Source: Torpedo marmorata (taxonomy: Eukaryota). From it: 64,000 nucleotides of DNA. A program made the position numbers and the translations under genes. The notes under the pieces are model-generated. The model searched no databases. It saw only the letters and a program-made list of their open reading frames with translations, and was not told the origin of the DNA. Below are positions 1 through 61,531 of the stretch, one piece after another (positions within the stretch are counted from its first letter, which is position 1; every line of letters begins with the position of its first letter). The stretch covers positions 204,848,001-204,912,000 of the forward strand of contig OZ360221.1 of the NCBI GenBank assembly GCA_977017645.1, in the 5' to 3' direction.

Positions 1-1970
1 TAGAAGATGAAAGTGAAGTATTAGAAGATGTTGCAAATAATACTGTTGATCATTCATGTGTAATTGAATCAAATACAGGAATAAAACAAGTGACTGAAAA
101 CAAATCTGAATGTAGATTTTGTAGTTCAGAGATTACAACAGACAAAGCTAATGAAGAATTATTGCAATGTGATGTAAAAATGGAAAACACAGAAAATTGT
201 GCTGATGGAGTAAAGAATAATGATTCAGAGAACAAAATGTTGAAAGGGGAATTGGAAATATTAGATAATCAAGAAAACAGTAAACAGAAAGATTTAATTG
301 TAAGTAAAACTCGCAAAGTCAGAAAGCGGAAGAAAAGAATAACTGCTGAAGAAATGAATACAGATATCTAAGAAAGAGATTCAGCATTATCAAAATGTAA
401 AAGGTTGGAGGAAGAGATTAATGTTTTAAAAGAGAACAAGTTATTGGTTAATAACACAACAGTTGACTTTAAAAACCAATCAAGAATGTAAATTGAATGT
501 TCAACAATTAACAATGCAGAAAGAATGTGATATTGCATTGCAGAAATGTAACAAACAAGATGAAGAAATTAAAAAATTTCAAGTTTGTCGCGACAGGATT
601 GACAATAGAAATATCAATGTACCATATGATATTTTGACTTCAGATCAAATTATTAATTTCTCGGAAGGAGCTGAGACTGAATTGAAAGTTGCAAAATTGG
701 ATTTAGAATTGCAGGAAAGAGCCATAGAAACCAGAGTGGTTAAACAGACCTGTTTAAAATCGAAAGAATCAGATAAATATTCAAATTCTAATTCTAAGAG
801 TTTAAATTCTTCACATGAGAAGTGGAATACTGAAGAAAGGAATAAAGTGAAACGACGTGCTGAAGAAGTGCCTTGTGTTAAATTCAAAAGAAAAACTGTA
901 TCTATTTTGTCTGAGGAGGATTTGAAGTTTACTGATTGACGTTTTAACTCAAAGATTATAGAGATAAAAGAACTTTAAAGAGACATTGTGATTGTTATGG
1001 ATGGTTCAACTTCAAGAAATTCCTGGTTACTTGGAAAAGATTATTGAGACTTTTCAAGACAAAGAGGACTTGTGCGTCAAGTGCGAATTAAAGCTAAGAC
1101 TGGTTTTCTAAACAGACCTATTAACAAGGTCTGTCTTTTGTTGGAGACAGAGGAACTTTGATAAATGTGATCTGACTTTATTTGTTGTTGTATATTTCAC
1201 AGGTTATAGACTTTTTTTGAATCAGAGTTATGGTAAACTCTAGATTTATGAAGAAGGAAGAAAGAAGATTTGTATTGTTTTGAATATTATGGTTATTGTT
1301 ATTTATAATTTATAGTGTAATTATTATTCAAGACATTACGTCTAATTATAATAATTAGGGGCCGGTGTAAGAGCCGTAGGCTCGTTTACTTACTGTTGTT
1401 GCGGCGCTCCGATGTCTTGTCGGGCCTTGGAGCGCTCACGTAGTTGTTGTAGTTGTTGCTGGGCCGTCCTCGGCCCGCTCGGAGCGCTCGCGTTGTCTGC
1501 GGGCCGCTATCGGCCCGTTCTGTGCTCTGCGCATGCGCTAGAGTGCCGACGGGCGCATGCGCAGTGTGGAGTGACGTCATTGTGCGCGTGGGAGGCTGGG
1601 AATTGTAGTATGTGCGTTGGAGCATGCGCATAGCCATAGAGAGTGAGAACAAAGAAAGGATAGAGATGTAGGAGGGTGAGTCTGGTCTCCACATCTTTAT
1701 TGACCGTTTTATATCGTTTTATAACTTTTACATCGTTCTACAGTGTTTTCATATCGTTTTGGAATTGTTTAAAGAACTATTTAAAGGAACTCATCATACA
1801 TCGTTTACAAGAACTGTTTATATTAAAGTCATTGAAGATTACTGCAAGTCATGTGTGAAAATAAAGGTTTTTGAACATATTGGACTTTGTTAGTAAATTG
1901 ATTAAAACGAGTCAAAGACAAGGACCACACTTAGCCTCCAGGTGACTATTGGTGGATCGAAGTCACCATA
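1..1970 (+). mobile_element. 3' part of non-autonomous BEL/Pao LTR retrotransposon, copy 1 (cargo ORF remnant, integrase C-tail, 3' LTR 1366-1970)
   Basis: 1-1365 is near-identical to 34990-36358. ~980-1150 encodes the BEL integrase C-terminal tail (DIVIVMDGSTSRNSWLLG..LVRQVRIKAKTGFLNRPINKVCLLLE, DUF5641-like, frameshifted). AATTAGGGGCCGG precedes an LTR starting TGTAAGAGCC and ending GAAGTCACCATA, as at 31129 and 36359. Confidence 0.9.
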
Positions 1971-2335
1971 TTATAGAGGTATTTAAGATTATGAAAGGGA
2001 TAGACAGAGTGGATGTGGATAGACTATTTCCGTTAAGATTAGGAGAGATTGAAACAAGAGGACATGAGTTAAGAGGCAGAGGTTTAGAGGTAACATGAGG
2101 GGGAACCTCTTTACTCAGAGAGTGGTAGCGGTGTGGAATGAGCTTCCGGGAGAAGTAGTGGCAGCAGAGTCAATTTTATTATTTAAGAAAAAGTTGGACA
2201 GGTATATGGATGAGAAGGAAGTGGAGGGTTATGGGCAGGGTGCAGGTAGGTGGGACTAGAGAGGTGTGTTTGGTTCAGTGCGGACTAGAAGGGCCTAATG
2301 GCCTGTTTCCGTGCTGTAATTGTTATATATGGTTA
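1971..2335 (+). mobile_element. CR1 LINE 3' end fragment
   Basis: Matches the CR1 ORF2 C-terminus and 3' UTR at 52740-53110 (IEVFKIMKG..FTQRVV..WNELP..; GGACTAGAAGGGCC..TGTAATTGTTATAT tail). Confidence 0.85.
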
Positions 2336-29259: not shown

Positions 29260-31080
29260 TGTTTAGGATATACGCAAGTGTGCGTATGATGTCATAACGC
29301 ATATGTATTGTATGCTGCGGGGAACCATTTTAGATTTGCAATAAAGAATGAATAAGGCACCACGTCTCCGTGTGCAAGTGTCTTTCTAAGCCTAGAATAC
29401 ACAACAGATTGGCGACGAGGATAAAAACGAACTTCTACACTCCGAACGTTGGAAGAAGATTGGAAGATTAGAAGGTACAACACAAGACGAAGACCACAGT
29501 AAGCCACACAGGCTGATGCACAGAGAACAAAGGAATGAAGACTCAAAATGGCAGAAGGACGTTTTGGAGAATTCAAAGAATCAGAAAGCTGGTATGACTA
29601 TGTGGAGAGATTTGATATGTTCTGTCTTGCCCATAATATTACAGATACACAGGCTTTCAGAAGGAAACAGGCACTGTTTCTAAGCGAAGTGGGAAGCAAA
29701 ATATATAAACTGATGAAATCTCTTTTGGCACCTGCGAGACCAAGTACAAGGTCTTATGAGGATTTGTGTGCAGTGGTAGGAGAATACCTATTGCCTAAAC
29801 CAGTAGTAATTGCAGAAAGATACAAATTTTATTCCAGAAAACAAAAAGCAAATGAAACTGTAAGCGAATATTTGGCTGAATTGCACAGACTGTCGGAAAG
29901 TTGTAATTTTGGAAAATTCCTGAACGAAGCATTAAGAGACAGGTTAGTCATGGGTTTGGCTGACTGCAATGCCCAGCAACGATTGCTAAGTAAGAAAGAA
30001 TTAGACATTAAGTCTGCGTATGATACCGCCTTAAGTTTCGAGATGGCCAGCCAAAACATGGATATCAAACAAGGAGAGACGCAGGTAATGGGAAAATTAA
30101 ACCAACGAGAATGCTTCCGCTGCGGAAAAAGTAACCACAGTCCAGATAATTGTTATTTCAAAAAAGCAAGGTGTCATCTATGTGACAAGAAGGGACACAT
30201 CAGAGCCAAATGTCCACGAAAAAGAGAAAGTGGAGGAAAGGAGAAAAATCAAACCCAAATACAAAAAAACAGTTGAAAAATGTGGGGGAGAAGGATGAAA
30301 GCCCGAGCAGTGAAACGAATGACTCCGAGTAAGACAAGGCAATGGAAGTAATGTATATTCGCAGTGTGATGGATAAGAAATCTGAAATTTATATCCATGT
30401 TAAAATCAACAATGAACCGCTCCGAATGGAGTTGGACACGGGAGCATCTGTGTCTCTTATGCCAGTAAATTTGAAAACAGGACTATTACCCCATCTTATC
30501 ATGAAACAGTCCGACATGGTGTTGAAAACGGTCACAGGAGAGAAAGTCAAGGTGCTTGGGAAATGTAAAGTAGACGTCGAGTACAAGGGACAGACATCGA
30601 ATAGATTACCCCTCTACATCGTGAACACAAAGGGGCCGGCGTTGTTTGGAAGAAACTGGTTGTCGCACATCCAACTGGATTGGATGGAAATTGGGTCAGT
30701 AATGAAGGTGTATGCTGAGGGTCAACCCAAATCGAAGGTGAAGCAAGTATTTGGGTATCAAATGATTTTTGCAAAAGGCCTGGGAAAAATTCAAGAAGTC
30801 CAGGCGAAGTTACAATTGAAACCTGAGGTTGAACCCAAATTTTATGCCAAGGACGGTACCTTTTGCAATAAAAGGAAATATTGAGTCAGAACTTAACAGA
30901 TTGGAAAACGAAGGAATCATTGAACGACTTCAATATAGTGATTGGGCAGCTCCCATCATGCCCGTCAGAAAACCCAATGGGGAAATTTGCATTTGTGGTG
31001 ATTACAAAGTCACCATTAATCAAGCTCTGCAAATACCGGAACATCCCATGCCCAGAGCGGAGGAGTTGTTTCAAGCCCTG
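29260..31080 (+). mobile_element. Ty3/Gypsy LTR retrotransposon 5' part (LTR end, tRNA-Ser PBS, gag, protease, RT start), truncated
   Basis: ACAACA end at 29406 and PBS TGGCGACGAGGAT at 29410. Gag 29548-30276 has two CCHC knuckles; protease LDTGASVS; RT WAAPIMPVRKPNG..CGDYKVTIN. The LTR start is uncertain. Confidence 0.88.
29548..30276 (+). CDS. Gypsy Gag (capsid-like region, two CCHC zinc knuckles)
   Basis: Open 242-aa frame with CFRCGKSNHSPDNC and CHLCDKKGHIRAKC. Confidence 0.75.
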   Translation: MAEGRFGEFKESESWYDYVERFDMFCLAHNITDTQAFRRKQALFLSEVGSKIYKLMKSLLAPARPSTRSYEDLCAVVGEYLLPKPVVIAERYKFYSRKQKANETVSEYLAELHRLSESCNFGKFLNEALRDRLVMGLADCNAQQRLLSKKELDIKSAYDTALSFEMASQNMDIKQGETQVMGKLNQRECFRCGKSNHSPDNCYFKKARCHLCDKKGHIRAKCPRKRESGGKEKNQTQIQKNS

Positions 31081-32175
31081 TGTAGTGACTTCAGTCCAAC
31101 AAATTGTCACTTGGAGGTGAGGTGAGATTGTAAGAGCCGTAGGATCAATAACTTACCTTGGTCGTGGTGCTCCGGTGCTTCGACGGGTTATGTAGGAGTC
31201 GCGGTGTCTGTAGGCCGTCCTCTGCCTGCTCTGTGCTCTGCACATGCGCTGGAGTGCCGACGGGCACATGCGCAGTCTGGAATTGACGTCATTGTGCGCG
31301 GTGTATTGTGGGAGATGTAGTGTGCGCAGTGGAATAGGAGCGATGGAGCATGCGCGAATCGGGAAGGAATAGGATAAGATGGCGATGTAGAAGGGTGAGT
31401 GAGATCGCCATATCTTTATTGAACGTTTCATAGCGTTTCATAGATCATTTCATCGAGCTTTTAAACTAGTTTATTTGTAGTTTAAAGTAGTTTAATTGAA
31501 CATCTGAATACAGTCAAAAGGAATCATTTAAAGGAACTCATCATACATCGTTTTCAAGAACTGTTTATATTAAAGTCATTGAAGATTACTGCAAGTCACG
31601 TGTGTAAATAAAGTTTTTGAACATATTGGACTTTGTTGGTAAATTAATTGAAACGCGTCAAAGACAAGTATCTCACTTAGCCTCCAGGTGACTATTGTTT
31701 GGATCGAAGTCACCATATTATAGTCAATAAAGATTGGATGTTTGGAACAGAAAATTGAAGGAAAGAAGATAGAATAATCTCTCTGTGCTTTGGACTGATA
31801 TTTAAAATAAAATGGTGGCCATCTTGAAGATGCCTCGAGTTGGGGGCAGTTTGTAATCCACATCCATCTGCCATGAGTAACAGCCAGAGAGGGATTTAAA
31901 GCTTCAAATCTTATAATAAAGTGTCCTATAAATACGTTGGAGAAACCATTTTTGGAAAATCAGTTATATTATTGACGGATGTTGTGGTTGAAACTCGTTT
32001 GTGGATAGCAGCACATTACAATCATTTGAAGTGGTAGGCATAAGTCTGTGGGCTCCTTCTGTGTATCTTTCGCAAGTAAGAACACAGATTGGAATTGCTG
32101 CCGCTGGTCCATTGGGGACTGTTGATTTGGCTAGTGTTGTGTATGCTTGAAGGACAGAGGAACAAGACGAGTAAA

Positions 32176-34898
32176 ATGGCCGCAGCAGCCTCTGATACAG
32201 CAGCTACTGATGTATCAGCAGCTGACGCAGCAATCGCTGATGTTGCTGTTGAGGACCAACGTATTGAAGACATGAAGATTGCGGATATTAAAAGAATTGA
32301 AGCGACTGAAAAAGGACATAAGTGGAAATAAAAAGGTTCTTATCGCAAGATTGAAGCTGGCAAAGGATGAAGAGGCAGCTTCATTAGATGAACAAGATGA
32401 TAACTTGGAAATGGCTGAAATTGTGTCACCAAATGATGAAGAAAATGATGAAGATATTGAAGAGGTTGAAGATGCAAAGGATATACAATTCAAATTGGAT
32501 AGAGGTAAGTATGAAGACAACATATGAACTGCAGGACGAAATACAAGCAAGTGACAGTGTCTCAAATGCTGAAAGCAGGAGAAGCAAAAGAAGTTCTGGT
32601 TCGAGCTCCAGAGTTTCTCGTACTTCAAGTTCTGCATTGTCACGTACAAAGATTGATGTTAAATTGGCCGCTCTTCTTGCACAACAAAAAACGCTTAAGG
32701 ATAAATTTATTTTAGAACAAGAGGAGGAGCAGCTAAGACAAAAGGAGGAGCAGCTAAGACAAAAGGAGGAGCAGCTAAGACGAGAGAAGGAGCAGCTAAG
32801 GCAGAGAAAAGAACAGCAGGAGCTGGAAGCAAACATTGCTATTGCCAAGGCAGAAAAGAAAGCAATAAAAGGCTCAATGGTATCTGGTGCTGGAAGTAAA
32901 TTATCTAAATTGTCTGATAATAAAAGGTCATATTTAAAAAAAGGAGTCACAGGAAAAGAAACCAACCAAAAGGATAGATATTTTAAGAACCAAGGATACA
33001 AAACTTGCATATACAAGGACAAACCTTTCAAGAGCATATTGGTATCGAGTCACATGTACCAATGGTAACATCTGAAAGCAAAGCTGCGGCTTGGGTTCGG
33101 TCGAACGAAGCAGCTTCTTTGTTATTTAAGTCAAGCATCAGAAATATGGAAGAAACTACACCAGTGAAGTTTCCAGATACATTGCGTGCAACAAGAGACG
33201 GTGAACAGAGCAATGTATTGTCATCCAAGGAAAGACAAAATGAAATTGCTGCATCATTGTTTCAGTTACAGTCTCTCTCTTCTTTACCCAAGAAAGAGAT
33301 ACAAACTTTTGATGGTGATCCACTTCAATATCAATCATTTATGAGATCTTTCAAACGCAATATTGAAGATAAATGCCAAGATCGTGATGAATGTCTTTAT
33401 TATTTGGAAATGTTCACAAAGGGACATCCAAAAGAACTGGTAAAGAGTTGTAAACAAATGTCTTCAGAAAGAGGATCAGACAAAGCTAAGGCTTTACTGG
33501 AACAATATATTGGCAACAAGCATCGAATTGCTTTAGCTTATATGGATAAAGCTCTTAAATGGACATCAATAAAACAAAATGATGTAAAGGCTCTGCAAGA
33601 ATATACTCTGTTTTTAAGAGGATGTTGTAATGCTATGGAAGAAATCGATAATATTCGTGAGCTTGAAGTGCATAGTATTATGCAAATCATCTTAGAAAAA
33701 TTACCTTACAAATTATGGGATAGATGGAGAAATTTGGCTTGTGATTTACAAGTAAATTACGGTCGAAAAATTACCTTAAAGGATTTGGTAAATTTTCTTG
33801 AACGACAGGTGTACGTTGAAACAGATCCACTATTTGGAATACCAGAGATAATTCAATGGGCAAAGATGTAAGGAAGTCTAACACACAGTCTAGTCTGAAA
33901 TTGAAAAGGAGTACTTTTGCTACTAATGTGTCAGTTATAAGTAAAGAAAAGGACAAAGTAAATAAGGAAAAGGAAAGTTTGCCTGATGAAAAGAGTTGTT
34001 TGTTCTGTAAATGTGGACATGCTTTGGAAATGTGTTTACGATTGGAAAAGAAGGAACATAAGGAGAAGATCGCTTTCTTAAAGGAAAATGGAATATGTTT
34101 TAGCTGTCTGTGTAAAGGGCACATCAGTAAAAACTGCAAAAGCAAATTAATTGTAACATATGCAATTTGAAACATCCTAGAATTTTGCATATCCATAACA
34201 GAAACAAGGAATTGGAAAAGGAGCAAACAGAAACAAAGGAAACAACAGAAAATAATGTTATAACCTCGGTTCAGACAAGTGGTCTTACTGGGGTCGGTGT
34301 GGATAACTGCAAACTTTCGATAGTGCCTGTACAAGTCAAGACCAAGAAAGGGGATGCAATAGTAAAAACATATGCATTTCTAGACCCAGGCAGCACTGCA
34401 TCTTTTTGCACGGAAGGACTAATGAATAAACTTAATATTCAAGGAAGAAGGTCAAGAATTATGTTAAAAACCATGGGACAAGAAAAGGTTGTTGATACTA
34501 ACATTGTTTCAGGCTTAGAGGTTGCTGGATTGAAAGACAAAAAATGTTGTGATCTTCCAAGTTTATATACTCAGAAGACTATGCCTGTGCATGAAGGAAA
34601 TATTCCTCATCAAAAGGATATCCATCATTTAGCTTATCTGTGGAAGGTTTATTTACTTGAAATTAATTCTGAGATAGAAATGCTGATTGGTTCAGATGTG
34701 CCAAAGACTTTGGAACCACAAGAAGTAATAGAGAGTAAAAGGAATGGACCTTACGCTATTAAAACCAAGTTTGGTTGGACAATCAATGGACCACTGGAAA
34801 GAAATAATGATATTGCTCAGGAACAGTTAGCGATAAATATTAATAGAATTTCGGTTGTGAAAGTTGAAGAGTTAAGCGAAGAGCAAAAAACTGAATAA
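32176..34898 (+). pseudogene. BEL gag-protease polyprotein, frameshifted, with N-terminal SAP-like motif
   Basis: Pieces in ORFs 32089-32331, 32279-32527, 32388-33068, 33005-33871, 33856-34170 and 34167-34898. Confidence 0.85.
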
Positions 34899-34965
34899 GA
34901 AAATCACTTTTGAAGAAAAGAAAACTGATCAATGTGAAAATAAATCAAGGGGATTTAAAACAACA

Positions 34966-35682
34966 TTGAAGGAATTATTTTCACCAAAAATGGATGAAAG
35001 TGAAGTATTAGAAGATGTTGCAAATAATACTATTGATTCATGTGTAATTGAATCAGATACAGGAATAAAACAAGTGACTGAAAACAAATCTGAATATAGA
35101 TTTTGTAGTTCAGAGATTACAACAGACAAAGCTAATGAAGAAATATTGCAATGTGATGTAAAACTGGAGAACACAGAAAATTGTGCTGATGGAATAAAGA
35201 ATAATGTGAATGATAATTTAATGCAATTAAATTCAGAGAACAAAATGTTGAAAGGGGAATTGGAAATATTAGATAATCATGAAAACAGTAAACAGAAAGA
35301 TTTAATTGTAAGTAAAACTCGCAAAGTCAGAAAGCGGAAGAAAAGAATAATTGCTGAAGAAATGAATACAGTTATTGAGGAAAGAGATTCAGCATTATCA
35401 AAATGTAAAAGGTTGGAGGAAGAGATTAATGTTTTGAAAGAGAACAAGTTATTGGTTAATAACACAAAACAGTTGATTTTAAAAAACAATCAAGAATGTA
35501 AATTGAATGTTCAGCTATTAACAATGCAGAAAGAATGTGATATTGCATTGCAGAAATGTGACAAGCAAGATGAAGAAATTAAAAGATTTCAAGTTTGCCG
35601 CAAAAGGAATGACAATGGAAATATCAATGTATCACATGATATTTTGACTTCAGATCAAATTATTAATTTCTCAAAGAACTGA
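34966..35682 (+). CDS. Cargo ORF inside BEL containing a MIPOL1-like coiled-coil segment
   Basis: KRIIAEEMNTVIEERDSALSKCKRLEEEI..NNTKQLILKNNQECKLNVQLLTMQKE..EEIKRFQV resembles recalled MIPOL1 RITAEEMSALIEERDAALSKCKRLEQEL..NNMRHLTAENNQERALKAKLLSMQQ..EEIQTLRV. Confidence 0.75.
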   Translation: MKELFSPKMDESEVLEDVANNTIDSCVIESDTGIKQVTENKSEYRFCSSEITTDKANEEILQCDVKLENTENCADGIKNNVNDNLMQLNSENKMLKGELEILDNHENSKQKDLIVSKTRKVRKRKKRIIAEEMNTVIEERDSALSKCKRLEEEINVLKENKLLVNNTKQLILKNNQECKLNVQLLTMQKECDIALQKCDKQDEEIKRFQVCRKRNDNGNINVSHDILTSDQIINFSKN

Positions 35683-36998
35683 GACTGAATTGAAAGTTGC
35701 AAAATTGGATTTGGAATTGCAGGAAAGAGCCATAGAAACCAGAGTGGTTAAACAGACCTGTTTAAAATCGAAAGAATCAAATAAATATTCTAGTTCTAAG
35801 AGTTTAAATTCTTCACATGAGAAATGGAATACTGAAGAAAGGAATAAAGTGAAATGACATGCTGAAGAAGTGCCTTGTGTTAAATTCAAAAGAAAAACTG
35901 TATCTATTTTGTCTGAGGAAGATTTGTGGTTTACTGGTCGATGTTTTAACTCAAAGATTATGGAGATAAAAGAACTTTAAAGAGACATTGTAATTATTAT
36001 GGATAATTCAACTTCAAGAAACTCCTGATTACTTGGAAAAATTATTGAGACTTTTCAAGACAAAAGGGGACTTGTGCGTCAAGTGTGAATTAAAACTAAG
36101 ACTGGTTTTCGAAAGAGACCTATTAACAAGGTCTGTCTTTTGTTGGAGACAGAGGAACTTTGATAAATACAAACTGACTTTATTTGTTGTTGTATACTTC
36201 ACAGGTTACAGACTTTTGATTCAGAGTTATGGTAAACTCTGGGTTTATGAAGAAAGAAGATTTGTATATTGTTTGAATGTTATGGTTATTTTTATTTATA
36301 ACTTATTGTGAAATTATTATTTAAGACATTACGTCTAGTTATAATAATTAGGGGCCGGTGTAAGAGCCGTAGGCTCAATAACTTACTTTGGTCGCGGTGC
36401 TTCGATGGGTTAGGAGTCGCGGTGTCTGTAGGCCGTCCTCGGCCTGTTCTGAGCTCTGCGCATGCGCTGGAGTGCCGACGGGCGCATGCGCAGTCTGGAA
36501 TTGACGTCATTGTGCGCGGTGTATTGTGGGAGATGTAGTGTGCGCGGTGGAGCGTGTGCAGTGGAATAGGAGCGATGGAGCATGCGCGAATCGGGAAGGA
36601 ATAGGATAAGGTGGCAACGTAGGAGGGTGAGTGAGATCGCCATATCTTTATTGAACGTTTCATAGCGTTTCATAGATCATTTCATCGAGCTTTTAAACTA
36701 GTTTATTTGTAGTTTAAATTAGTTTAATTGAACATCTGAATACAGTCAAAAGGAATCATTTAAAGGAACTCATCATACATCGTTTTCAAGAACTGTTTAT
36801 ATTAAAGTCATTGAAGATTACTGCAAGTCACGTGTGTAAATAAAGTTTTTGAACATATTGGACTTTGTTGGTAAATTAATTGAAACGCGTCAAAGACAAG
36901 TATCTCACTTAGCCTCCAGGTTACTATTGTTTGGATCGAAGTCACCATAGAGATACTTGTTCTTGATGCGTTTCAATTAATTTACTAACAAAGTCCAT

Positions 36999-37520
36999 CA
37001 AAGAAACAAGGAATTGGAAAAAGAGCAAACAGAAACAAAGGAAACAACAGAAATCAATGTTATAACCTCGGTCAGACAAGTGGTCTTATCGGGGCCGGTA
37101 TAGAAGAAGGTCAAGAATTATGTTGAAAACCATGGGACAAGAAAAGGTAGTTGAAACCAGCATTGTTTCAGGCTTAGAGGTTGCTGGATTGGATGACAAA
37201 AAATTTTGTGATCTTCCAAGTTTATATACTCAGAAGACTAATCCTGTGCACGAAGGAAACATTCCGCATCAAAATGATTTCCATCATTTGTCTTATCTGT
37301 GGAAGGTTTATTTACCTTAAGTTAATTCTGAAATAGAAATGCTGATTGGTTCAGATGTTTTGGAAACATTAGAAGTAATACGGAGTAAAGGGAATGGACC
37401 TTACGCTGTTAGAACCAAGTTTGGTTGGACAATTAATGGACCATTGGAAAGAAATAATGATATTGCACAGGAACAGTTAGTGATAAATATTAACAGCATT
37501 TTGGTTGTGAAAGTTGATTT
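36999..37520 (+). mobile_element. Deleted duplicate of the BEL protease region
   Basis: Similar to 34199-34867 with an internal deletion ([27 protein letters not shown]). Confidence 0.85.
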
Positions 37521-38299: not shown

Positions 38300-41200
38300 T
38301 CAGAATCAGAATTTATTGTCATGAACAAGTCATGAAATTCGGTGCTTTGCGGCAGCATCATAGTGCAATTAACATTCATATTAACCATTCTAACGACATT
38401 ACTATATAAAATTATAAACAATAGTGCACTAGTGTCTTTGGTTCATTGATTGTTCAGGAATCTGATGGCAGCGGGGAAGAAGCTGACCTTGTGCCGTTGA
38501 GTGCTCGTCTTTAGGCTCCTGTACCTTTTCCCCGATGGAAGCAGCGTGAAGAGGGCATGGCCTGGGTGGTGGGGGTCCTTGAGGATAGAGGCTGCTTTAT
38601 TAAGACATCGCCTCATGTAGATGTCCTCGATGGAGTGAAGTTTGGTGCCCGTGATGTCACAAGCCGAGGTAACAACCTTCTGGAGTTTGCACTTGTCCTG
38701 GGAGTTGGCACCACCATACCAGGCAGTGATGCAACCAGCTAGAATGCTCTCCACGGTACACCTGTAGAAGTTCACAAGAGTCTTTGGCGACATACCGAAT
38801 CTCCGCAATCGCCTCACAAAGTATAGCCGCTGACGAGCCTTCTTTGTGATTGCATCCACGTGGATGCTCCAGGACAGATCCTCGGAGATGTTGACACCCA
38901 GGAATTTGAAGTTCTTGACCCTCTCCACGACTGAGCCCTCGATGAGGACTGGGTTGTGTTCCCCTGACTTCCTCCTGAAGTCCACAATCATCTCCTTGGT
39001 TTTACTGACGTTGAGCTCGAGGTTGTTGTCATTACACCATTCAATGAGCTGATCTATCTCCCTCCTGTACGCTTCCTCATTGCCGTTTGTGATTCTGCCG
39101 ACAACTGTGGTGTCATCGGCAAACTTGTATATGGCATTGGAATTGTGCCTGGCCTCACAGTCATGAGTGTATAGCGAGTAGAGCAGTGGGCTAAGCACAC
39201 ATCCTTGGGGTGCGCCTGTGTTGATAATCAGTGAGGAGGAGACGTTGTTTCCAATTCGTACTGACTGTGGTCTTCCGATGAGAAAGTCAAGGATCCAGTT
39301 GCAGAGTGGGGTACAGAGGCCTAGAGTTTGTAGCTTCTTGACCAGCACTGAGGGAATAATGGTATTGAAGGCCGAGCTGTAGTCTATGAAGAGCAGCCGT
39401 ATGTATGAATTGCTGTTTTCGAGGTGATCCAGAGCTGAGTGGAGAGCCAGCGATATTGCATCTGCTGTGGAGCGATTGTGACGATAGGCGAATTGCAGTG
39501 GGTCCAGGTCTTTGCTTAGGTATGTGTTAATTCTGGTCATGACCAGCCTCTCAAAACATTTCATCACCGTAGAAGTTAGTGCTACTGGGCGATAGTCGTT
39601 GAGGCAGCTCACACTACTCTTCTTGGGCACCGGGATGATTGATGCCCTTTTGAAGCAGGTGGGAACCTCTGACTGCCGCAATGAGAGGTTGAAAATGTCC
39701 GTGAACACTCCGGCTAGTTGGTTGGCGCAGATTTTCAATACCCTGCCAGGTACGCCGTCAGGGCCTGACGCCTTGCGAGGGTTCACCCTCTTGAATGATG
39801 TTCTGACGTCGCCCTCAGAGACAGATATCACAGGGTCCTCTGCCCTCTCAGGGATTCTATTAGGCACCGTTTTGTTCTTCTTCTCAAAGCGGGCATAGAA
39901 GGTGTTCAGCTCATCGGGTAGTGAAGCATCACAGCCGTCTATAGTGTTCCCTCTCGTTTTGTAGGCTGTAATGGCCTGCACTCCCTGCCATAGCTGCCGT
40001 GTATCTGTCTCTGTCTCTAGCTTCCTTCGGAATTGCCACTTTCCTTCAGAGATGGCCTTCCGCAGGTCGTGCCTGGACTTTTTGTAAAGATCCCGGTCCC
40101 CTTCTTTAAACGCCCTTGTTCTCGTCCTCAGCAAGTTGCGAATTCTTTGATTCATCCAGGGCTTCTGGTTGGGGAACACCCGGTATTTGCGCGTGGGCAC
40201 ACACTCATCCACGCAGGTCTTGATGAAGTCGGTGACACTTGTTGCATATTCATTTATGTCTATGGCTGAGTGCTTGAATATGTTCCAGTCCACCGAGTCA
40301 AAGCAGTCCTGCAGACGCTCCTCCGCCTCCCTTGACCACACTTTCGCTGTCCTCTCCACTGTTGCTGTGGACTTTAGTCTCTGCTTGTACGCCGGGAGTA
40401 GAAGTACAGCCAGGTGATCAGACTTGCCGAAGTGCGGTCGTGGTATGGCTCGGTAGGCGTTCTTCACGGTGGTGTAGCAGTGGTCAAGTGTGTTGGTTCC
40501 CCTGGTCTCGCAAGTGACGTGTTGGTGGTAGTTTGTCAGTGACTTCTTCAGGTTGGCCTGATTGAAGTCTCCCACAATGATCGGGAAGGCATCAGGATGT
40601 GCTGTCTCATGGCTGTTTATCACAGTGCTCAGTCCCTCCAGTGCCAGCCTGACGTTAGCCTGGGGCGGAATGTACACTGCGACCAGGATGATGGCGGTGA
40701 ACTCCCTCGGCAGATAGAATGGGCGACACTTGATCGCCAGATGTTCTAGGTCGGGGGAGCAGGACTGGGACATGATCGTCACGTCTGTGCACCACGATGA
40801 ATTGATGATGACACACACGCCGCCTCCCCTGGTTTTTCCAGACGCCGGTGTTCGGTCAGCGCGGTGGAGGGTGTAGCCCTTGGGCTGTAGCGCCGTGTCC
40901 GGAATGTCCTTGTTTAGCCACGTTTCTGTGAAGCACATCACGCAGCACTCCCTGATGACTCCCTGATATTGAATTCTGGCTTGGAGTTCATCAAATTTGT
41001 TCTCCAAGGATTGAACGTTGGCCAGTAGGATGGTAGGGAGCGGAAGCTTCAGGTCCCCCCTTCTCAGTTTGACCTGTAGCCCCCCTCTGCGTCCCCGTGG
41101 TCGGGACTTCTTTACCTGGCCCTTGGATCCGCGTCTACGTGGTCGGGGCTTCTTTACCTGGCCCTTGGATCCGCTGCCGGTAGGTCCCGCAGTGTTTAAA

Positions 41201-41581
41201 CGGACGGTGCGCTGTCCCTTTAAATCCTGCGCGATTTGTAATTGTGTTGATTGCCTGCTGTCTGCGGCTCCCGCGAAGTTTGAACGGCCCGTTCTCTGGC
41301 CGTTTAAAACTCCCGCGGTGCCGCAGCTGCTGTACCTGCGTGATTTGATTGGAGGTCCCGCGGCCCGACGGAGACTGCAGCTGTACCTTCGTAAGTTCTT
41401 TAAAGGTCCCCCGGTTCCGATTCCGAGTTCTTCCAGCGATCTTTGGACATCCCCGTTGTAGGGTAAGTATGTTTTTGTGTTCGTTCTGATTTTTAGGAGT
41501 TCTGACCAGGAATACTTGATTATTCCCGTCAGAGCTGCTCGCAAAGAGTCGCCGGTGCAAGGCGCCGGTGCAAGGCGCCAT
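38300..41581 (-). mobile_element. Apparently full-length Rex1/Babar-like LINE
   Basis: 5' ATGGCGCC start, single long ORF, 3' AATAAATTCTGATTCTGA tail; inserted in the pogo transposase between WIDN and NRRPGGL. Confidence 0.9.
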
Positions 41582-41592
41582 TGTCTATCCAT
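38443..41592 (-). CDS. Intact APE endonuclease-reverse transcriptase ORF (1049 aa)
   Basis: NVQSL..FTETWL..GDFN..SDH (APE); [38 protein letters not shown]; C-terminal LPSGKRYR; no stops. Confidence 0.9.
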   Translation of the reverse strand: MDRQWRLAPAPCTGDSLRAALTGIIKYSWSELLKIRTNTKTYLPYNGDVQRSLEELGIGTGGPLKNLRRYSCSLRRAAGPPIKSRRYSSCGTAGVLNGQRTGRSNFAGAADSRQSTQLQIAQDLKGQRTVRLNTAGPTGSGSKGQVKKPRPRRRGSKGQVKKSRPRGRRGGLQVKLRRGDLKLPLPTILLANVQSLENKFDELQARIQYQGVIRECCVMCFTETWLNKDIPDTALQPKGYTLHRADRTPASGKTRGGGVCVIINSSWCTDVTIMSQSCSPDLEHLAIKCRPFYLPREFTAIILVAVYIPPQANVRLALEGLSTVINSHETAHPDAFPIIVGDFNQANLKKSLTNYHQHVTCETRGTNTLDHCYTTVKNAYRAIPRPHFGKSDHLAVLLLPAYKQRLKSTATVERTAKVWSREAEERLQDCFDSVDWNIFKHSAIDINEYATSVTDFIKTCVDECVPTRKYRVFPNQKPWMNQRIRNLLRTRTRAFKEGDRDLYKKSRHDLRKAISEGKWQFRRKLETETDTRQLWQGVQAITAYKTRGNTIDGCDASLPDELNTFYARFEKKNKTVPNRIPERAEDPVISVSEGDVRTSFKRVNPRKASGPDGVPGRVLKICANQLAGVFTDIFNLSLRQSEVPTCFKRASIIPVPKKSSVSCLNDYRPVALTSTVMKCFERLVMTRINTYLSKDLDPLQFAYRHNRSTADAISLALHSALDHLENSNSYIRLLFIDYSSAFNTIIPSVLVKKLQTLGLCTPLCNWILDFLIGRPQSVRIGNNVSSSLIINTGAPQGCVLSPLLYSLYTHDCEARHNSNAIYKFADDTTVVGRITNGNEEAYRREIDQLIEWCNDNNLELNVSKTKEMIVDFRRKSGEHNPVLIEGSVVERVKNFKFLGVNISEDLSWSIHVDAITKKARQRLYFVRRLRRFGMSPKTLVNFYRCTVESILAGCITAWYGGANSQDKCKLQKVVTSACDITGTKLHSIEDIYMRRCLNKAASILKDPHHPGHALFTLLPSGKRYRSLKTSTQRHKVSFFPAAIRFLNNQ

Positions 41593-42689
41593 AGTTTTAC
41601 ACCATTTTCATCCATGCATCCTTTTTCATGAAAATGTACAAAAATACCCACAGGGAATTTTATTTTAGGTTTAAATTTGCATTTGAAGATTACCATGGGT
41701 CTTAACTTTGTCCTGTCGGCCATGCACGATAACACCACGGTAAACCTGGTCCTTTCATGGCCTGTACTCCTGGTTTGCACAGTTTTCACACCTTTCCATT
41801 CCACTGTTCTATTGCTATCATGTCGAAATTCATGGGGGTTTCGTTCATGTTTCCAATATTTGCCAATGCATACTTGTGTTTCTGCTGGTTACGTATAATA
41901 AACTGGTGAAAACTTACAACTTTATGATCAAGATCTTTTGGTAGTTTCTGAGGAATTTTAGTTTTTTGTAGTAATACCAGATTTTTCCTGTTCATGAAAC
42001 GGTTGCACCAGCCTACTGTAGCTTCAAAATCATTACTGAGTTTTGGGTGTGACTTTGCCCACTTCAGTGCAAATGTTCTTAATTTATTTCGGGTGACTAT
42101 GTAGCAATCTTGCCTCTGTTCACGTACCCATGCTGCAACATAATTTTACAACTCTGGCCAACGAGTGATTCCTCTTCTCATCGAACATTGCCTTTTTGGT
42201 ATCTTTCTTAAAGTCTCTTCTTTCTTCCTCCAATCTCTTACCAACTTCTCATATCAAATTTTCTTGCAGCAGCACAGTTGTTGGTTTTCTTGGCTATTTC
42301 TATCACTTTTAATTTAAAACTCGCCTCATACTTTTGTCGTTTCAATGGACCCTCCACGATAACAATCACCTCCAGCTAACGCCCAGCAGCTCAATCATCA
42401 CGATTTTTGGGGGTCGACCTATACGCCGAGCATCTCAGGCCTCGCGATTTTTTGGGGGTCGACTTATACGCCCGATATACAATAAAACCATTAAAATGTG
42501 GCTGAAAAAGGGGGGGTCGACTCATCTGTGGGCCAACTTATACATCGAAATATACGGTAGTTCCTTTGAATTGAAGTATTTTGAAATATAGAAATAATTA
42601 AAAATGATTTTTCTTTGTTTAACTGGTTTTACAATGTCTGGGTTAGTTTCTATACACTGTGTCTTAACATATCTGTTTTGCTTTCATAG

Positions 42690-57290: not shown

Positions 57291-57867
57291 CTATACTCCA
57301 GATGGAGCTTTCTTTCTAAGCAAATTTGTGAGAGGGAGCGCAAGATCATCAAAGTTTTTACAGAACTTGCGGTAGTAGCCAATCATTCCCAGGAACCTCC
57401 TCAGAGTTTTCTTACCAGTTGGAACAGGGAACTCGGAAATAGTCAAAACCTTTGCCTCTACTGGCGCCAACTGCCCCTGTCCTACTACATAACTCAGAGA
57501 ATTAACAGTCCCATGACCCTCTCTGAAACTGGCTTTATCTGTCTCCTCCTTACCCCTGTCAATAACCAGTCCCTCTGGTAAATGTTCAGTCTCTTTGTGT
57601 GGCACCTGTTCAAAATATGGCTTAATCATATTCACATGACAGACCTGTGTGTCTCGTCTGCGATTAGGTGTTTCTATGATATAGGTGACATCATTAATTT
57701 TTGACTTAACTCTATAGGGTCCTGAAAATCTAGCCCTAAGAGGATTTGAATGGATGGGAAACAGAACTAATACGTTCTCACCAGGTTTAAAAGTTCTCAT
57801 CTTTGCCTTTCGATCATACCAAACCTTCATTCTCTGTTGAGTGGCCTTTAAATTCTCCTTTGCCATC

Positions 57868-59586
57868 TCAAGCCCTATGTAACTGATCCTTAAATTTGGA
57901 AACATAATCTAACAGATTTAAATGCACATCACTATTAATCCACTGTTCTTTTAATAATCTTAAAGGACCTCTCATCTCATGTCCGAAAACTAACTTGAAT
58001 GGACTAAAACCAAGTGATTCTTGGATAGACTCCCTCGCTGCAAATAACAACAAATGAAACCCCTCATCCCAATCCTCTTCCTTTTCACAACAATAGGTTC
58101 TAATCATGTTTTTCAAAGTCGAATGGAACCTCTCCAAGGCCCCTTGACTTTCTGGATGGTACGCAGAGGATACAATCTGTTTAACTCCTAGTCCATCAAC
58201 CACTTGTTGGAAAACGCCTGACATGAAATTACTGCCCTGATCTGATTGAATTTCTCTTGGCAAACCTACCAAGGTGAAAAACTTTGCTTTAATGTTTCTC
58301 AGAGGAATGGCCTCTGGAAATCTGGTGGCTGCACACATAATTGTTAACAAATACTCATTCCCCGTTTTGGTTTTGGGCAATGGGCCAACACAGTCCACAA
58401 TTACTCTCGAGAAAGGCTCACTGAAAGCAGGGATAGGTTGCAAGGGTGCCACCGGGGGACCCTGATTAGGTTTACCCACCACCTGACAAGTGTGACAGGC
58501 CTGGCAAAAGCTTACAACCTCCCTTCTCAAATTGGGCCAATAAAATTGTTTCATTATCTTCCTTATAGTTTTCTTCACCCCAAGGTGACCACCTAAGGGT
58601 GTACTATGAGCCAAAGTTATTATTGCATTCCTATATACTTTAGGGATCACAACCTGCTGCACTACTGCCCATTCTTCATTGGCAGGAACATCACATGGTC
58701 TCCACTTTCTCATCAACACCCCATCTTTTTCATAATAACCCACTGGCACCTTTTTAATCTCCTCTTCAGAGAGAACCTTATCCCTCACCTCAGCAAGATC
58801 AGGATCGTCCTTTTGCCTTGCTATTAGCTCCTGTCGGGATAGTGACAAATCTGTGCCTTTAGGTGTCTTATCAGTGGATGGGTGTAACACAGAAGATTGC
58901 TCAACCTTTTCCAGGTTTTCTTGATTATCACTGTCTTTTTCTTTCACCATGTTATTTTCCACTGCCTTCTCTACAGTGAGATTTTTCTTAGACATGGCCC
59001 TGGTTATGCCACATGCTGGATAAATATCAGAGTCTTTCTCTGACTTCTCAATGACTGGCTTAGTGGTCATTCGCACTGCAGGAACTACTTTACCCTTGGC
59101 CAAGTCATTGCCTAACAACAGTGAGACTCCTTCTACTGGCAACTCTGATCTCACTCCTATTATAACAGGTCCTTCCACCAAGTCTGAGTCCAACACTATT
59201 TTGTGCAAAGGAATGGACTCAACATCACCACCAATTCCTTTAATTAAATTTATGTCACCGGTGTCAGTAGCTTCACAAATTTCCAAGACACTATCTAATA
59301 CAAGTGACTGAGCAGCTCCAGTATCTCGCAAGATTTTCACTGGAACTTGTTTTGATCCTGCCTTAACTGAAACAAAACCATCAGTCACAAAAGGTTTAAA
59401 TACATCTTTAACTTTGTCAGTAAATTTATCTCCTTCCTGGGTGTTATGCCTCTTCTCACTCTGAATACAAGCATTAGGTGTTGCATCCTTTTCTCTCTTC
59501 TTTTTCAACACTGGACAGCTTGCTAGCATATGACCAGCCTTCCTACAGTAGTGGCAAATGGGACCCGAATGGTTTTCCCTTTCCAC
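57868..59586 (-). CDS. Gmr1-type protease-integrase open frame (572 aa)
   Basis: Continuous frame from the zinc knuckle through the integrase DDE core. Confidence 0.75.
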   Translation of the reverse strand: MERENHSGPICHYCRKAGHMLASCPVLKKKREKDATPNACIQSEKRHNTQEGDKFTDKVKDVFKPFVTDGFVSVKAGSKQVPVKILRDTGAAQSLVLDSVLEICEATDTGDINLIKGIGGDVESIPLHKIVLDSDLVEGPVIIGVRSELPVEGVSLLLGNDLAKGKVVPAVRMTTKPVIEKSEKDSDIYPACGITRAMSKKNLTVEKAVENNMVKEKDSDNQENLEKVEQSSVLHPSTDKTPKGTDLSLSRQELIARQKDDPDLAEVRDKVLSEEEIKKVPVGYYEKDGVLMRKWRPCDVPANEEWAVVQQVVIPKVYRNAIITLAHSTPLGGHLGVKKTIRKIMKQFYWPNLRREVVSFCQACHTCQVVGKPNQGPPVAPLQPIPAFSEPFSRVIVDCVGPLPKTKTGNEYLLTIMCAATRFPEAIPLRNIKAKFFTLVGLPREIQSDQGSNFMSGVFQQVVDGLGVKQIVSSAYHPESQGALERFHSTLKNMIRTYCCEKEEDWDEGFHLLLFAARESIQESLGFSPFKLVFGHEMRGPLRLLKEQWINSDVHLNLLDYVSKFKDQLHRA

Positions 59587-61531
59587 TTTCCTTCATCCCT
59601 TTCCTTAACACCACTTCCAAATTTACTTTCCACTTGCTTCTGATTATCCACAGTGACCTTTTGGAAAATTCTGCCTGACGTCCACTTAGGCTTGTGGGTT
59701 AAAGCATATTCATCTGCTAACTTACCTGAATTTTGCCAAGTTTTCACCTCCTTTTCATCTAAGTATGCCTTAATATCCTCAGGAACACACCTTTTTATCT
59801 CCTCGATTATTATCAATTCTCTCAATTGATTGTAATCATGGTTTACTTCCTTAGATGTGCACCACCTGTCAAAACACACAACCTTCTCATAGGCAAACTC
59901 TGTATAAGATTGGGTTGCTGATCTTTTTAAATTTCTAAACTTCTGTCTATAAGCCTCTGGAACTAACTCATAAGCCTGGAGATAGCCTTTTTCACTGTTT
60001 CACAATCAGCAGCTTGCTCCGTGGTAAGAGTAGAATAAGCTTGCTGAGCTTTTCCTTTTATTACACTTTGTAACATAAGAGACCATTGACCTTGTGGCCA
60101 TTTTAATTTCACAGCCACCTTCTCAAAATGTTGGAAGTACTTATCTATTTCTGCCTCCTCAAATGGAGCAACCAACCTAACTTCTCTACTAGCCAAAAAC
60201 CCCTCAGCAGGATGACGAATTTGATCTTGGTGCTCTTCTTGTCCCCTCTCATTTTCCAACTTCATCTTTTCCAGCTCATATTTCCTATTTTTCTGATCGT
60301 TCTCTAAGTCTAATTTATTTTGTTCCAATTCCATGTCAAATTTCTTTTGTTCCAATTCCGTGTCTAATTTCTTTTGTTCCCTGGCTGCCTCCAATTCTAA
60401 TTTCTTTTGTTCCCTGTCTGCCTCCAATTTCTTTTGTTCCAATTCCAATTTCTTTATTTCCAATTGTATGTTTTCAGAAGGTTTACCCTTGGGAAACTGC
60501 TCTCACAGGCTCCCCTCAAATTTTTTTTTCTTTTATATAGTATTTGAGAATTTTTCTCCCAATCTCTGCCCTTTTCATAGATGCTTTTACAGAAGCAATG
60601 CCCCACCCTGTTGCTATAGCCACTAACTGTTCCTTTTTCGCCTTTTTTAAAGCATCAGGTTCAGGTGATTCCAAAAAATGTTCTACATCCATTGTTGCTG
60701 GTTTTTCATTACACACACGCTAGCTTTTAATTAGCTTTACAAAAGGAATGTCTTAAACCAAACTGGGATTCCTTCAATTACCAAATGGATTTTGATTCAA
60801 ATCCCGGACGAGCCCCCAATTTTACTACAAAATCAAACCAGCAACGACAGAAGATGCAATGCAAAAGGGGTAAAATTGAAATTATTATTTATTAAACACA
60901 AGTAAACATATAATTTCACAACAATTAACCCCACTATAAACGTCAATAAACACTATTCTTATCTAAAAGGTGTGTGTGTGTAAAGCCCAGACCATTACAG
61001 TCTGTGCCCAACCCTTATGTAAAAATGGAAAAACTTTCCCCAAAAAACCCCAGGTCAGTCATAAAAACAAGTCAGTCAACAAAAAGAATAATACAGTCCA
61101 CAAAAATTCACTCTCAGTTCAGGTTTCAAATTCAGCTCTGTGTGCTGGTAGAAGTACTTCTGAATGAACGATGGAGAGAGACAATGACTGTTTATGCTTA
61201 CAAATACTTGGCTTGTTTTTCTTCTTTGATGACGTTCCCTTCTTGTGTTTTCATAAGGATTGCGAATTCAGATCAGTATACCACTGGTTTAGGCGTGTGC
61301 TTGGATCTCACAGCTGGTCTCGCTGATCTCACGCCTGTTCTCCACAAAAGTTGCTTTACCTCAGAATTTCTCTGAGACAGGAGGCCATGTGCTATTCTTC
61401 CAGCCTTTTCTCTGGGATGCACAAGCCTGGATTTGGCTGTGCTCTCCAGCCTTTGCAACTCCAATCTGCCTGCTTTTTTCATAGGTCTGCACCTGCTTTT
61501 GCAAAAGTGCAACAAAGTATCTTTTCCACAG

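Follow-up and report, generated by a model that had tools for sequence, protein, structure and literature searches.

A BEL/Pao long terminal repeat (LTR) retrotransposon family of the electric ray Torpedo marmorata carries, between its protease and its integrase tail, a ∼1.1-kb mosaic of intronless pieces of the host genes BRCA1, MIPOL1 and Elongin A (ELOA). Reading from sequence, we put at about 0.72 the probability that the reverse transcriptase (RT)-RNase H-integrase portion of pol was replaced by this in-frame spliced mosaic through RT template switching, with the MIPOL1 piece likely derived from a circular RNA, and that the resulting elements are copied in trans by a sister family. The element was encountered in a 64,000-nt stretch of contig OZ360221.1 (positions 204,848,001 to 204,912,000; hereafter the window), which contains one whole copy and the 3' part of another (table 1).

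Table 1. Features of the cargo-bearing BEL/Pao elements in the window (window coordinates)
Feature	Position	Strand	Basis or remark
BEL/Pao element, whole	31129-36949	+	LTRs 31129-31722 and 36359-36949, target site duplication (TSD) GAGAT
Left TSD GAGAT, 5 bp	31124..31128	+	Flank reading
5' LTR, starts TGT, finishes TATA	31129..31722	+	K2P 0.025 vs 3' LTR
SAP - Gag (DUF1759, zinc knuckles) - aspartic protease, BEL/Pao	32176..34881	+	SAP scored on intact copies
BRCA1 piece: small exon (part) joined to large exon (5' end), intron absent	34882..35305	+	70-78% vs host exons
MIPOL1 exons A (3' part), B and C, joined	35298..35603	+	79-86% vs host exons
Back-splice position: exon C end joined out of gene order to start of upstream u1	35603..35604	+	Host-exon alignment
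MIPOL1 upstream exons u1 and u2, shortened by internal deletion	35604..35755	+	72-86% vs host
Elongin A piece: 3' part of large exon and a later exon	35746..35958	+	74-90% vs host exons
Integrase C-tail remnant, DUF5641 positions 42-94, behind a stop	35982..36163	+	Pfam score on copy L042
Purine-rich tract preceding 3' LTR; putative polypurine tract (by position)	36349..36358	+	
3' LTR	36359..36949	+	
Right TSD GAGAT	36950..36954	+	Flank reading
Second copy, 3' part, same cargo; 3' LTR 1366-1975, TSD GAGGT	1..1975	+	5' part before window start

Pfam identifies in the window element a DUF1759 Gag and a DUF5641 integrase tail, together with a weak match to a protease; its SAP-Gag-protease region is interrupted by stops and frameshifts, and it has no RT, RNase H or integrase core. 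The original prediction of a BEL/Pao element with RT-RNase H-integrase swapped for cargo is borne out by comparison with a full-length relative, in which 3.2 kb of pol (L152:4187-7378) occupy the place of the cargo. DUF1759 reaches or exceeds the cut-off in all four frames scored, and the protease matches fall below the cut-off, with an FLDPGS motif visible in the sequence. After the protease, the window family retains only the DUF5641 tail of the pol order, which in both sister-family frames scanned runs protease (PR)-RT-RNase H (Peptidase_A17)-integrase with a DUF5641 tail, RT and rve scoring below cut-off. Nine of 12 two-LTR copies are flanked by a 5-bp TSD, as read from the flanks, and three are without one. 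BEL/Pao LTR ends are usually TG...CA. The present LTRs depart from this, starting with TGT and finishing, where a TSD defines the 3' end, in TA, TAATA, TATTATA or TTACTTATA, with an internal CACCA a few bases before the end. The LTR 3' ends are TA-rich and variable in length (window 31700-31722 and other copies), and inspection by eye of the window and other copies found no TGG-type primer site directly after the 5' LTR. A SAP domain opens Gag in the cargo and helper families alike (window 32260-32370). The window element is inserted into a piece of an older LTR from the same family, in inverted orientation (31083-31128 and 36950-37517), followed by a second protease fragment, and a Gypsy-type gag-protease remnant lies at 29539-31080.

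The cargo aligns to nine host exons at 70-90% DNA identity, two of BRCA1, five of MIPOL1 and two of Elongin A, and the introns are absent. The host genes lie in the same genome on C61 (BRCA1, exons at G000:C61:25.49-25.50 Mb), C40 (MIPOL1) and C41 (Elongin A, exons at G000:C41:38.99-39.01 Mb), with IARS1, a gene captured by relatives (see below), on C22. Three host MIPOL1 exons match the cargo DNA at 79-86% and are separated in the host by introns of 29 and 78 kb that the cargo lacks, the exon-exon joints being exact. Older relatives of the family (72-80% alike) hold longer pieces, 84-98% identical to the host exons, whose joints are exact at the splice sites of all three genes. At the protein level, a HMMER search of 1.84 billion proteins returned 37 matches, and the 10 looked up comprised seven MIPOL1, two hypothetical proteins and one BRCA1. 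Rays and sharks supply the best protein matches, Narcine leading, as expected of a cartilaginous-fish host that is likely a ray. Shark MIPOL1 was matched at E 1e-24, with 61 of 103 residues identical over cargo residues 146-247; residues 3-151 share 79 of 165 with skate BRCA1. Elongin A is identified by Pfam (59 bits, cut-off 29.8) and by a PDB match (E 3e-39). The MIPOL1 likeness in the original prediction is thus confirmed, and origin from that gene alone is not: MIPOL1 contributes ∼460 of ∼1,080 cargo bases, and BRCA1 and Elongin A flank it. Likewise, the exact exon-exon joints uphold the predicted capture of spliced host RNA, but for MIPOL1 a circular RNA fits better than the linear mRNA envisaged. 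Nineteen nucleotides between the MIPOL1 and Elongin A pieces fall outside both assignments. The cargo encodes a basic cluster, KTRKVRKRKKR, with the host counterpart IHKARERKKR. Many RING-finger matches to the BRCA1 N-terminus cluster on G000:C80-C82 and small contigs, which we take to be perhaps a large TRIM-like array.

A 29-mer spanning the BRCA1/MIPOL1 joint has 16,776 exact matches dispersed through the 6.2-Gb assembly (control, 0), and this count sets a minimum for the size of the family. A protein search gave 32,934 first-look candidates, older relatives included. The 110-aa query is free of stops in 147 of 150 scored copies, and 21 of the 150 have open frames of at least 1,100 aa, so that the single Gag-PR-cargo fusion frame suspected at the outset is found in natural copies, reaching 1,321 aa. 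Nineteen of these 21, and the second window copy, read SAP-Gag-PR-cargo and end near the Elongin A piece. Both LTR starts are present in 12 of 21 copies examined, with an LTR K2P of 0-0.025; these copies lean young because most were chosen for long frames. The second window copy (L050) is an independent insertion with its own LTR pair (K2P 0.005), other flanks and its own TSD, and the cargo indeed travels with the element as predicted. Three cargo-element copies were met in 400 kb of host-gene DNA not selected for the element. The host MIPOL1 region itself holds three copies (G000:C40:64.40-64.50 Mb, at least two intronic), and at G000:C1:1498235-1518119 five cargo joints at 4,964-nt spacing form a tandem array of the element. 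In assembled contigs from four of 20 sequencing runs, under four organism labels, the cargo is covered in 30, 30, 30, and 23 of 30 bins, which shows presence alone and not expression or species range; one 930-nt contig among them spans protease-BRCA1-MIPOL1.

The likely helper of these elements is a full-length sister family. A DUF5641 search listed frames of ∼2,040 aa, and the sister-family frame (2,033-2,047 aa) encodes SAP, DUF1759, RT, Peptidase_A17, integrase and DUF5641 domains in the two copies scanned. Three sister copies are 89-94% alike to the cargo family in gag-PR and have LTRs of the same family, one LTR pair being 99.85% identical. The original prediction of a non-autonomous Gag-PR-cargo element accordingly gains a candidate partner, by which the cargo family would be mobilised in trans. 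An RT search from an old full-length copy recovered that decayed family alone among 150 scored, and it was the DUF5641 search that found the helper. Older cargo relatives are only 69-78% alike to this helper, and among window-type copies the LTRs track different helper types (83-95%) while the cargo stays 95-98% alike, which makes it likely that the cargo changed backbones.

Relatives of the family hold other captures. A separate BEL lineage (L148, G000:C2:258373000-258382999) has a long cargo of IARS1 only, extending from the interior of RNase H to an in-frame end in the integrase tail. Three copies (L099, L103, and L147) combine in one run the N-terminal part of ELOA, BRCA1, MIPOL1, the C-terminal part of ELOA, IARS1 and an NDC80-like piece. 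First-look candidates number 188 for the IARS1 piece and 55 for the NDC80-like piece. The former matches in PDB at E 1e-70 and covers four joined host exons at 88-98% with exact joints. The latter is identified by one PDB match (E 2e-4) without Pfam support, and no host NDC80 exons were found among 29 matches.

The MIPOL1 piece is not collinear with its gene. Host exons are ordered u1-u2-m-s-A-B-C over 206 kb, and the cargo reads A(3' part)-B-C-u1-u2-m(start), with the splice donor of the late exon C joined exactly to the acceptor of u1, 206 kb upstream in the host. Host exon C ends TACTACAG before gt and u1 begins CAGGGCTG after ag, and the older relatives read TACTACAG-CAGGGCTG. In the window copy this joint is worn by substitutions; across the loci CAG/CAG is kept at 20 of the 23 that are readable (27 examined, four unread), with a window-type neighbour among the 20. 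Of two acceptors in tandem, it is the upstream one that was used, and this matches shark isoforms reading “NISR.” The seven exons u1 to C total 780 nt, a whole number of codons, a sum for which four exon limits were adjusted by hand using the flanking sequence. The MIPOL1 piece both starts and stops inside this seven-exon circle, and no exons outside u1 to C were found in three copies aligned or 13 copies translated. The joining of the exon C donor to the upstream u1 acceptor suggests copying from a circular RNA, which is the simplest reading of the MIPOL1 piece and one that we consider highly probable. An exonic circ-Mipol1 has been reported in mouse (PMC9888537), a likeness to the cargo source by gene name.

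A generic coiled-coil resemblance, or a local duplication, is an extremely improbable account of these observations. An initial protein search by word matching, run with the window frame, was empty at E ≤ 0.001 and Atlas recognition values stay under that tool's strong threshold, as a look-alike would have it; the full HMMER search nevertheless succeeded, and the DNA identity to host exons has its edges at splice sites, which a look-alike does not explain. The dispersion of the copies and their separate TSDs speak against a local duplication. A Pfam scan of the cargo gave no useful match, the Pfam set used being without MIPOL1 families. An “IN-like” assignment or a coiled-coil chance match was ruled out by the DNA-to-exon mapping. 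A more substantial alternative is that both MIPOL1 pieces came from the linear mRNA, RT having jumped at a shared AG from the last bases of exon C back to the first of u1, or else from an uncommon transcript with scrambled exons, whether trans-spliced or tandem-duplicated. AG is indeed common to the end of exon C and the end of the exon normally before u1, other cargo joints appear to use 2-8 shared bases, and non-collinear joints can arise in other ways (Dong et al. 2016, PMC4897178, in its available part). However, AG is all that these exon ends share, and both breakpoints lie exactly on splice sites, for which we roughly estimate a chance of ∼3 in 10,000 were two positions drawn at random within 780 nt, whereas none of the six other host-side joints mapped is on an exon edge. 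Both ends of the piece also remain within the circle, and the host exons found occur once and in order. We regard this alternative as rather improbable and favour the circular template.

The cargo frame has been kept open, probably not for function, because amino acids have changed in a near-neutral manner but stops have been avoided. Selection was assessed on copies picked because their frames were long and their MIPOL1 parts alike, with neutral expectations from simulation under the observed mutation spectrum, which is heavily biased towards A/T (G>A 48, C>T 40, and C>A 25 of 164 shared changes). The 164 host-to-element changes common to four copies include 106 amino-acid changes against 113.7 ± 4.8 expected (P 0.065) and no stops against 10.1 expected (0 of 4,000 simulation runs). 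Amino-acid change in the BRCA1 part falls a little short of the neutral expectation (P 0.029), and the protease control gives 36-42 amino-acid changes against 53-58 expected. Cargo-to-host dN/dS in five copies is 1.0-1.1 at kappa 3 and 0.66-0.73 at kappa 1; the protease against older relatives gives 0.38-0.76 at kappa 3 (five pairs). The purifying signal in gag-PR may have been imported from the helper by recombination. Seven of eight internal gaps in the window family relative to L102 are multiples of three, the eighth only net of a neighbouring gap, and relative to the decayed L104 two of seven are not. Natural open frames continue through ten gene-to-gene or gene-to-pol joints. The frame has thus been preserved, and the protein sequence for the most part has not.

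The same data bear on whether the cargo might be a working part of the polyprotein, supplying a coiled coil or nuclear-import signal to particles or acting as a silencing decoy, and whether cargo elements outnumber RT-bearing ones for this reason. The frame has survived 164 substitutions and several deletions, a basic cluster stands where the host has IHKARERKKR, and cargo copies exceed the 7,936 BEL RT first-look candidates, although these counts come from different searches and are loosely comparable. Shared MIPOL1 variants within the family also look constrained (pN/pS 0.35; 11 S, 11 N), but this value is biased by the picking of copies for MIPOL1 likeness. Against the host, amino-acid change in the MIPOL1 part proceeds at the neutral rate (49 against 47.9 expected), relatives with a different cargo (IARS1 alone) do equally well, and non-autonomous elements frequently outnumber their helpers (Tan et al. 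2016, PMC5131818, in its available part). A working cargo is unlikely on this evidence, and an open frame without selected protein function is preferred. We infer that the open frame matters for escape from nonsense-mediated decay or for Gag acting in cis.

From the structure of the copies, read without a rooted tree, the following order of events can be proposed. Host RNAs would have been co-packaged in BEL particles, and RT would have switched onto them at 2-8 shared bases. On the MIPOL1 circle, copying would have begun in exon A, continued over the back-splice joint and ended in exon m. Capture-bearing elements may then have recombined and stacked genes, giving the IARS1-alone and ELOA-BRCA1-MIPOL1-ELOA-IARS1-NDC80-like variants, after which further switches would have placed a shortened cargo on a younger backbone, to spread together with that helper. 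Selection would now preserve an open frame almost as far as the 3' end, with RNA stability or cis-made Gag as the likely reason, as the cargo amino acids drift. Short shared bases, noted by eye without a null model, are AGCAA, common to pol and BRCA1 at the 5' joint, AGATTTAA and TCAGAA at deletions and AG at the BRCA1-MIPOL1 joint in older copies. The hallmarks of LTR-mediated retrocopies are present, namely introns removed, sense orientation, partial sequence and replacement of the internal open reading frame. A broader and tentative proposal is that this BEL lineage is a serial collector of RNA, having gathered a circular RNA and pieces of BRCA1, Elongin A, IARS1 and NDC80 in frame, that a translated Gag-PR-cargo fusion might aid its spread beyond the helper, and that its more than 16,000 germ-line copies could bring small-RNA cross-talk upon essential host genes.

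Acutely transforming retroviruses make gag-onc fusions in which host coding sequence replaces pol in frame with Gag, and they depend on helpers. The present family resembles them in the fusion of host sequence to Gag in the place of pol, and is unlike them in that no env is seen, inheritance is through the germ line, several genes are stacked and there is no sign that the host piece was selected for activity. Maize Bs1 is likewise an LTR element with pieces of three host genes in a hybrid frame, but it is a plant element, described as a novel chimeric gene for which a role in the host is proposed (PMC13317346, in the part available); the Torpedo elements are BEL elements of a vertebrate, present in very many copies, with a cargo drifting at the amino-acid level and a back-splice joint. 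The accessible text of Tan et al. (2016; PMC5131818) describes LTR-mediated retrocopies that include two-gene chimeras in the Pao element BATUMI, a BEL18_AG case and a four-gene mouse case. As in those retrocopies, a partial, sense, intronless mRNA replaces part of the internal open reading frame with what look like short shared bases at the joints, and both LTRs are retained and the product re-copied as a non-autonomous element. Those cases occupy single or few loci, whereas here at least 16,776 copies have three genes in frame with Gag-PR, together with intermediates and a matching helper. The word “circular” is absent from that accessible text. The circRFWD2 pseudogenes of mouse, 33 copies with LTR sequence nearby, arose by a mechanism called mysterious in the available part of the report (Dong et al. 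2016, PMC4897178). They share with the MIPOL1 piece a non-collinear joint at a back-splice position, lack of poly(A), many copies and nearby LTR sequence; unlike them, the Torpedo joint is enclosed by pieces of two other genes within the coding frame of a defined LTR element, a setting indicative of co-packaging and template switching. A published description of this family was not found in the literature searched, the repeat libraries Repbase and Dfam and supplements such as Table S8 of Tan et al. lying outside that search.

What appears to be new, in that we did not find it in print, is the combination of LTR gene capture with likely circular RNA capture at this scale and with intermediates, each part alone being already known. 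The route by which circular RNAs return into genomes was left open in the available text on circular RNA pseudogenes (Dong et al. 2016, PMC4897178). A back-splice joint in the frame of a defined LTR element, with a likely helper in the same genome, specifies such a route, by co-packaging and template switching, that is open to testing. This genome also retains intermediates of multi-gene exon shuffling and offers a clean natural case of selection for an open frame without selection on the protein. In practical terms, anyone annotating genes, analysing RNA-seq or calling circular RNAs in Torpedo marmorata, and perhaps in its relatives, will have to contend with interference from more than 16,000 intronless copies resembling BRCA1, MIPOL1 and ELOA. 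Elsewhere in the window, on the minus strand, a 1,054-aa open frame at 38443-41607 resembles by eye a LINE endonuclease-RT, and a second LTR-type remnant at 57291-60540, also labelled by eye, has gag, protease and integrase-like frames with little RT.
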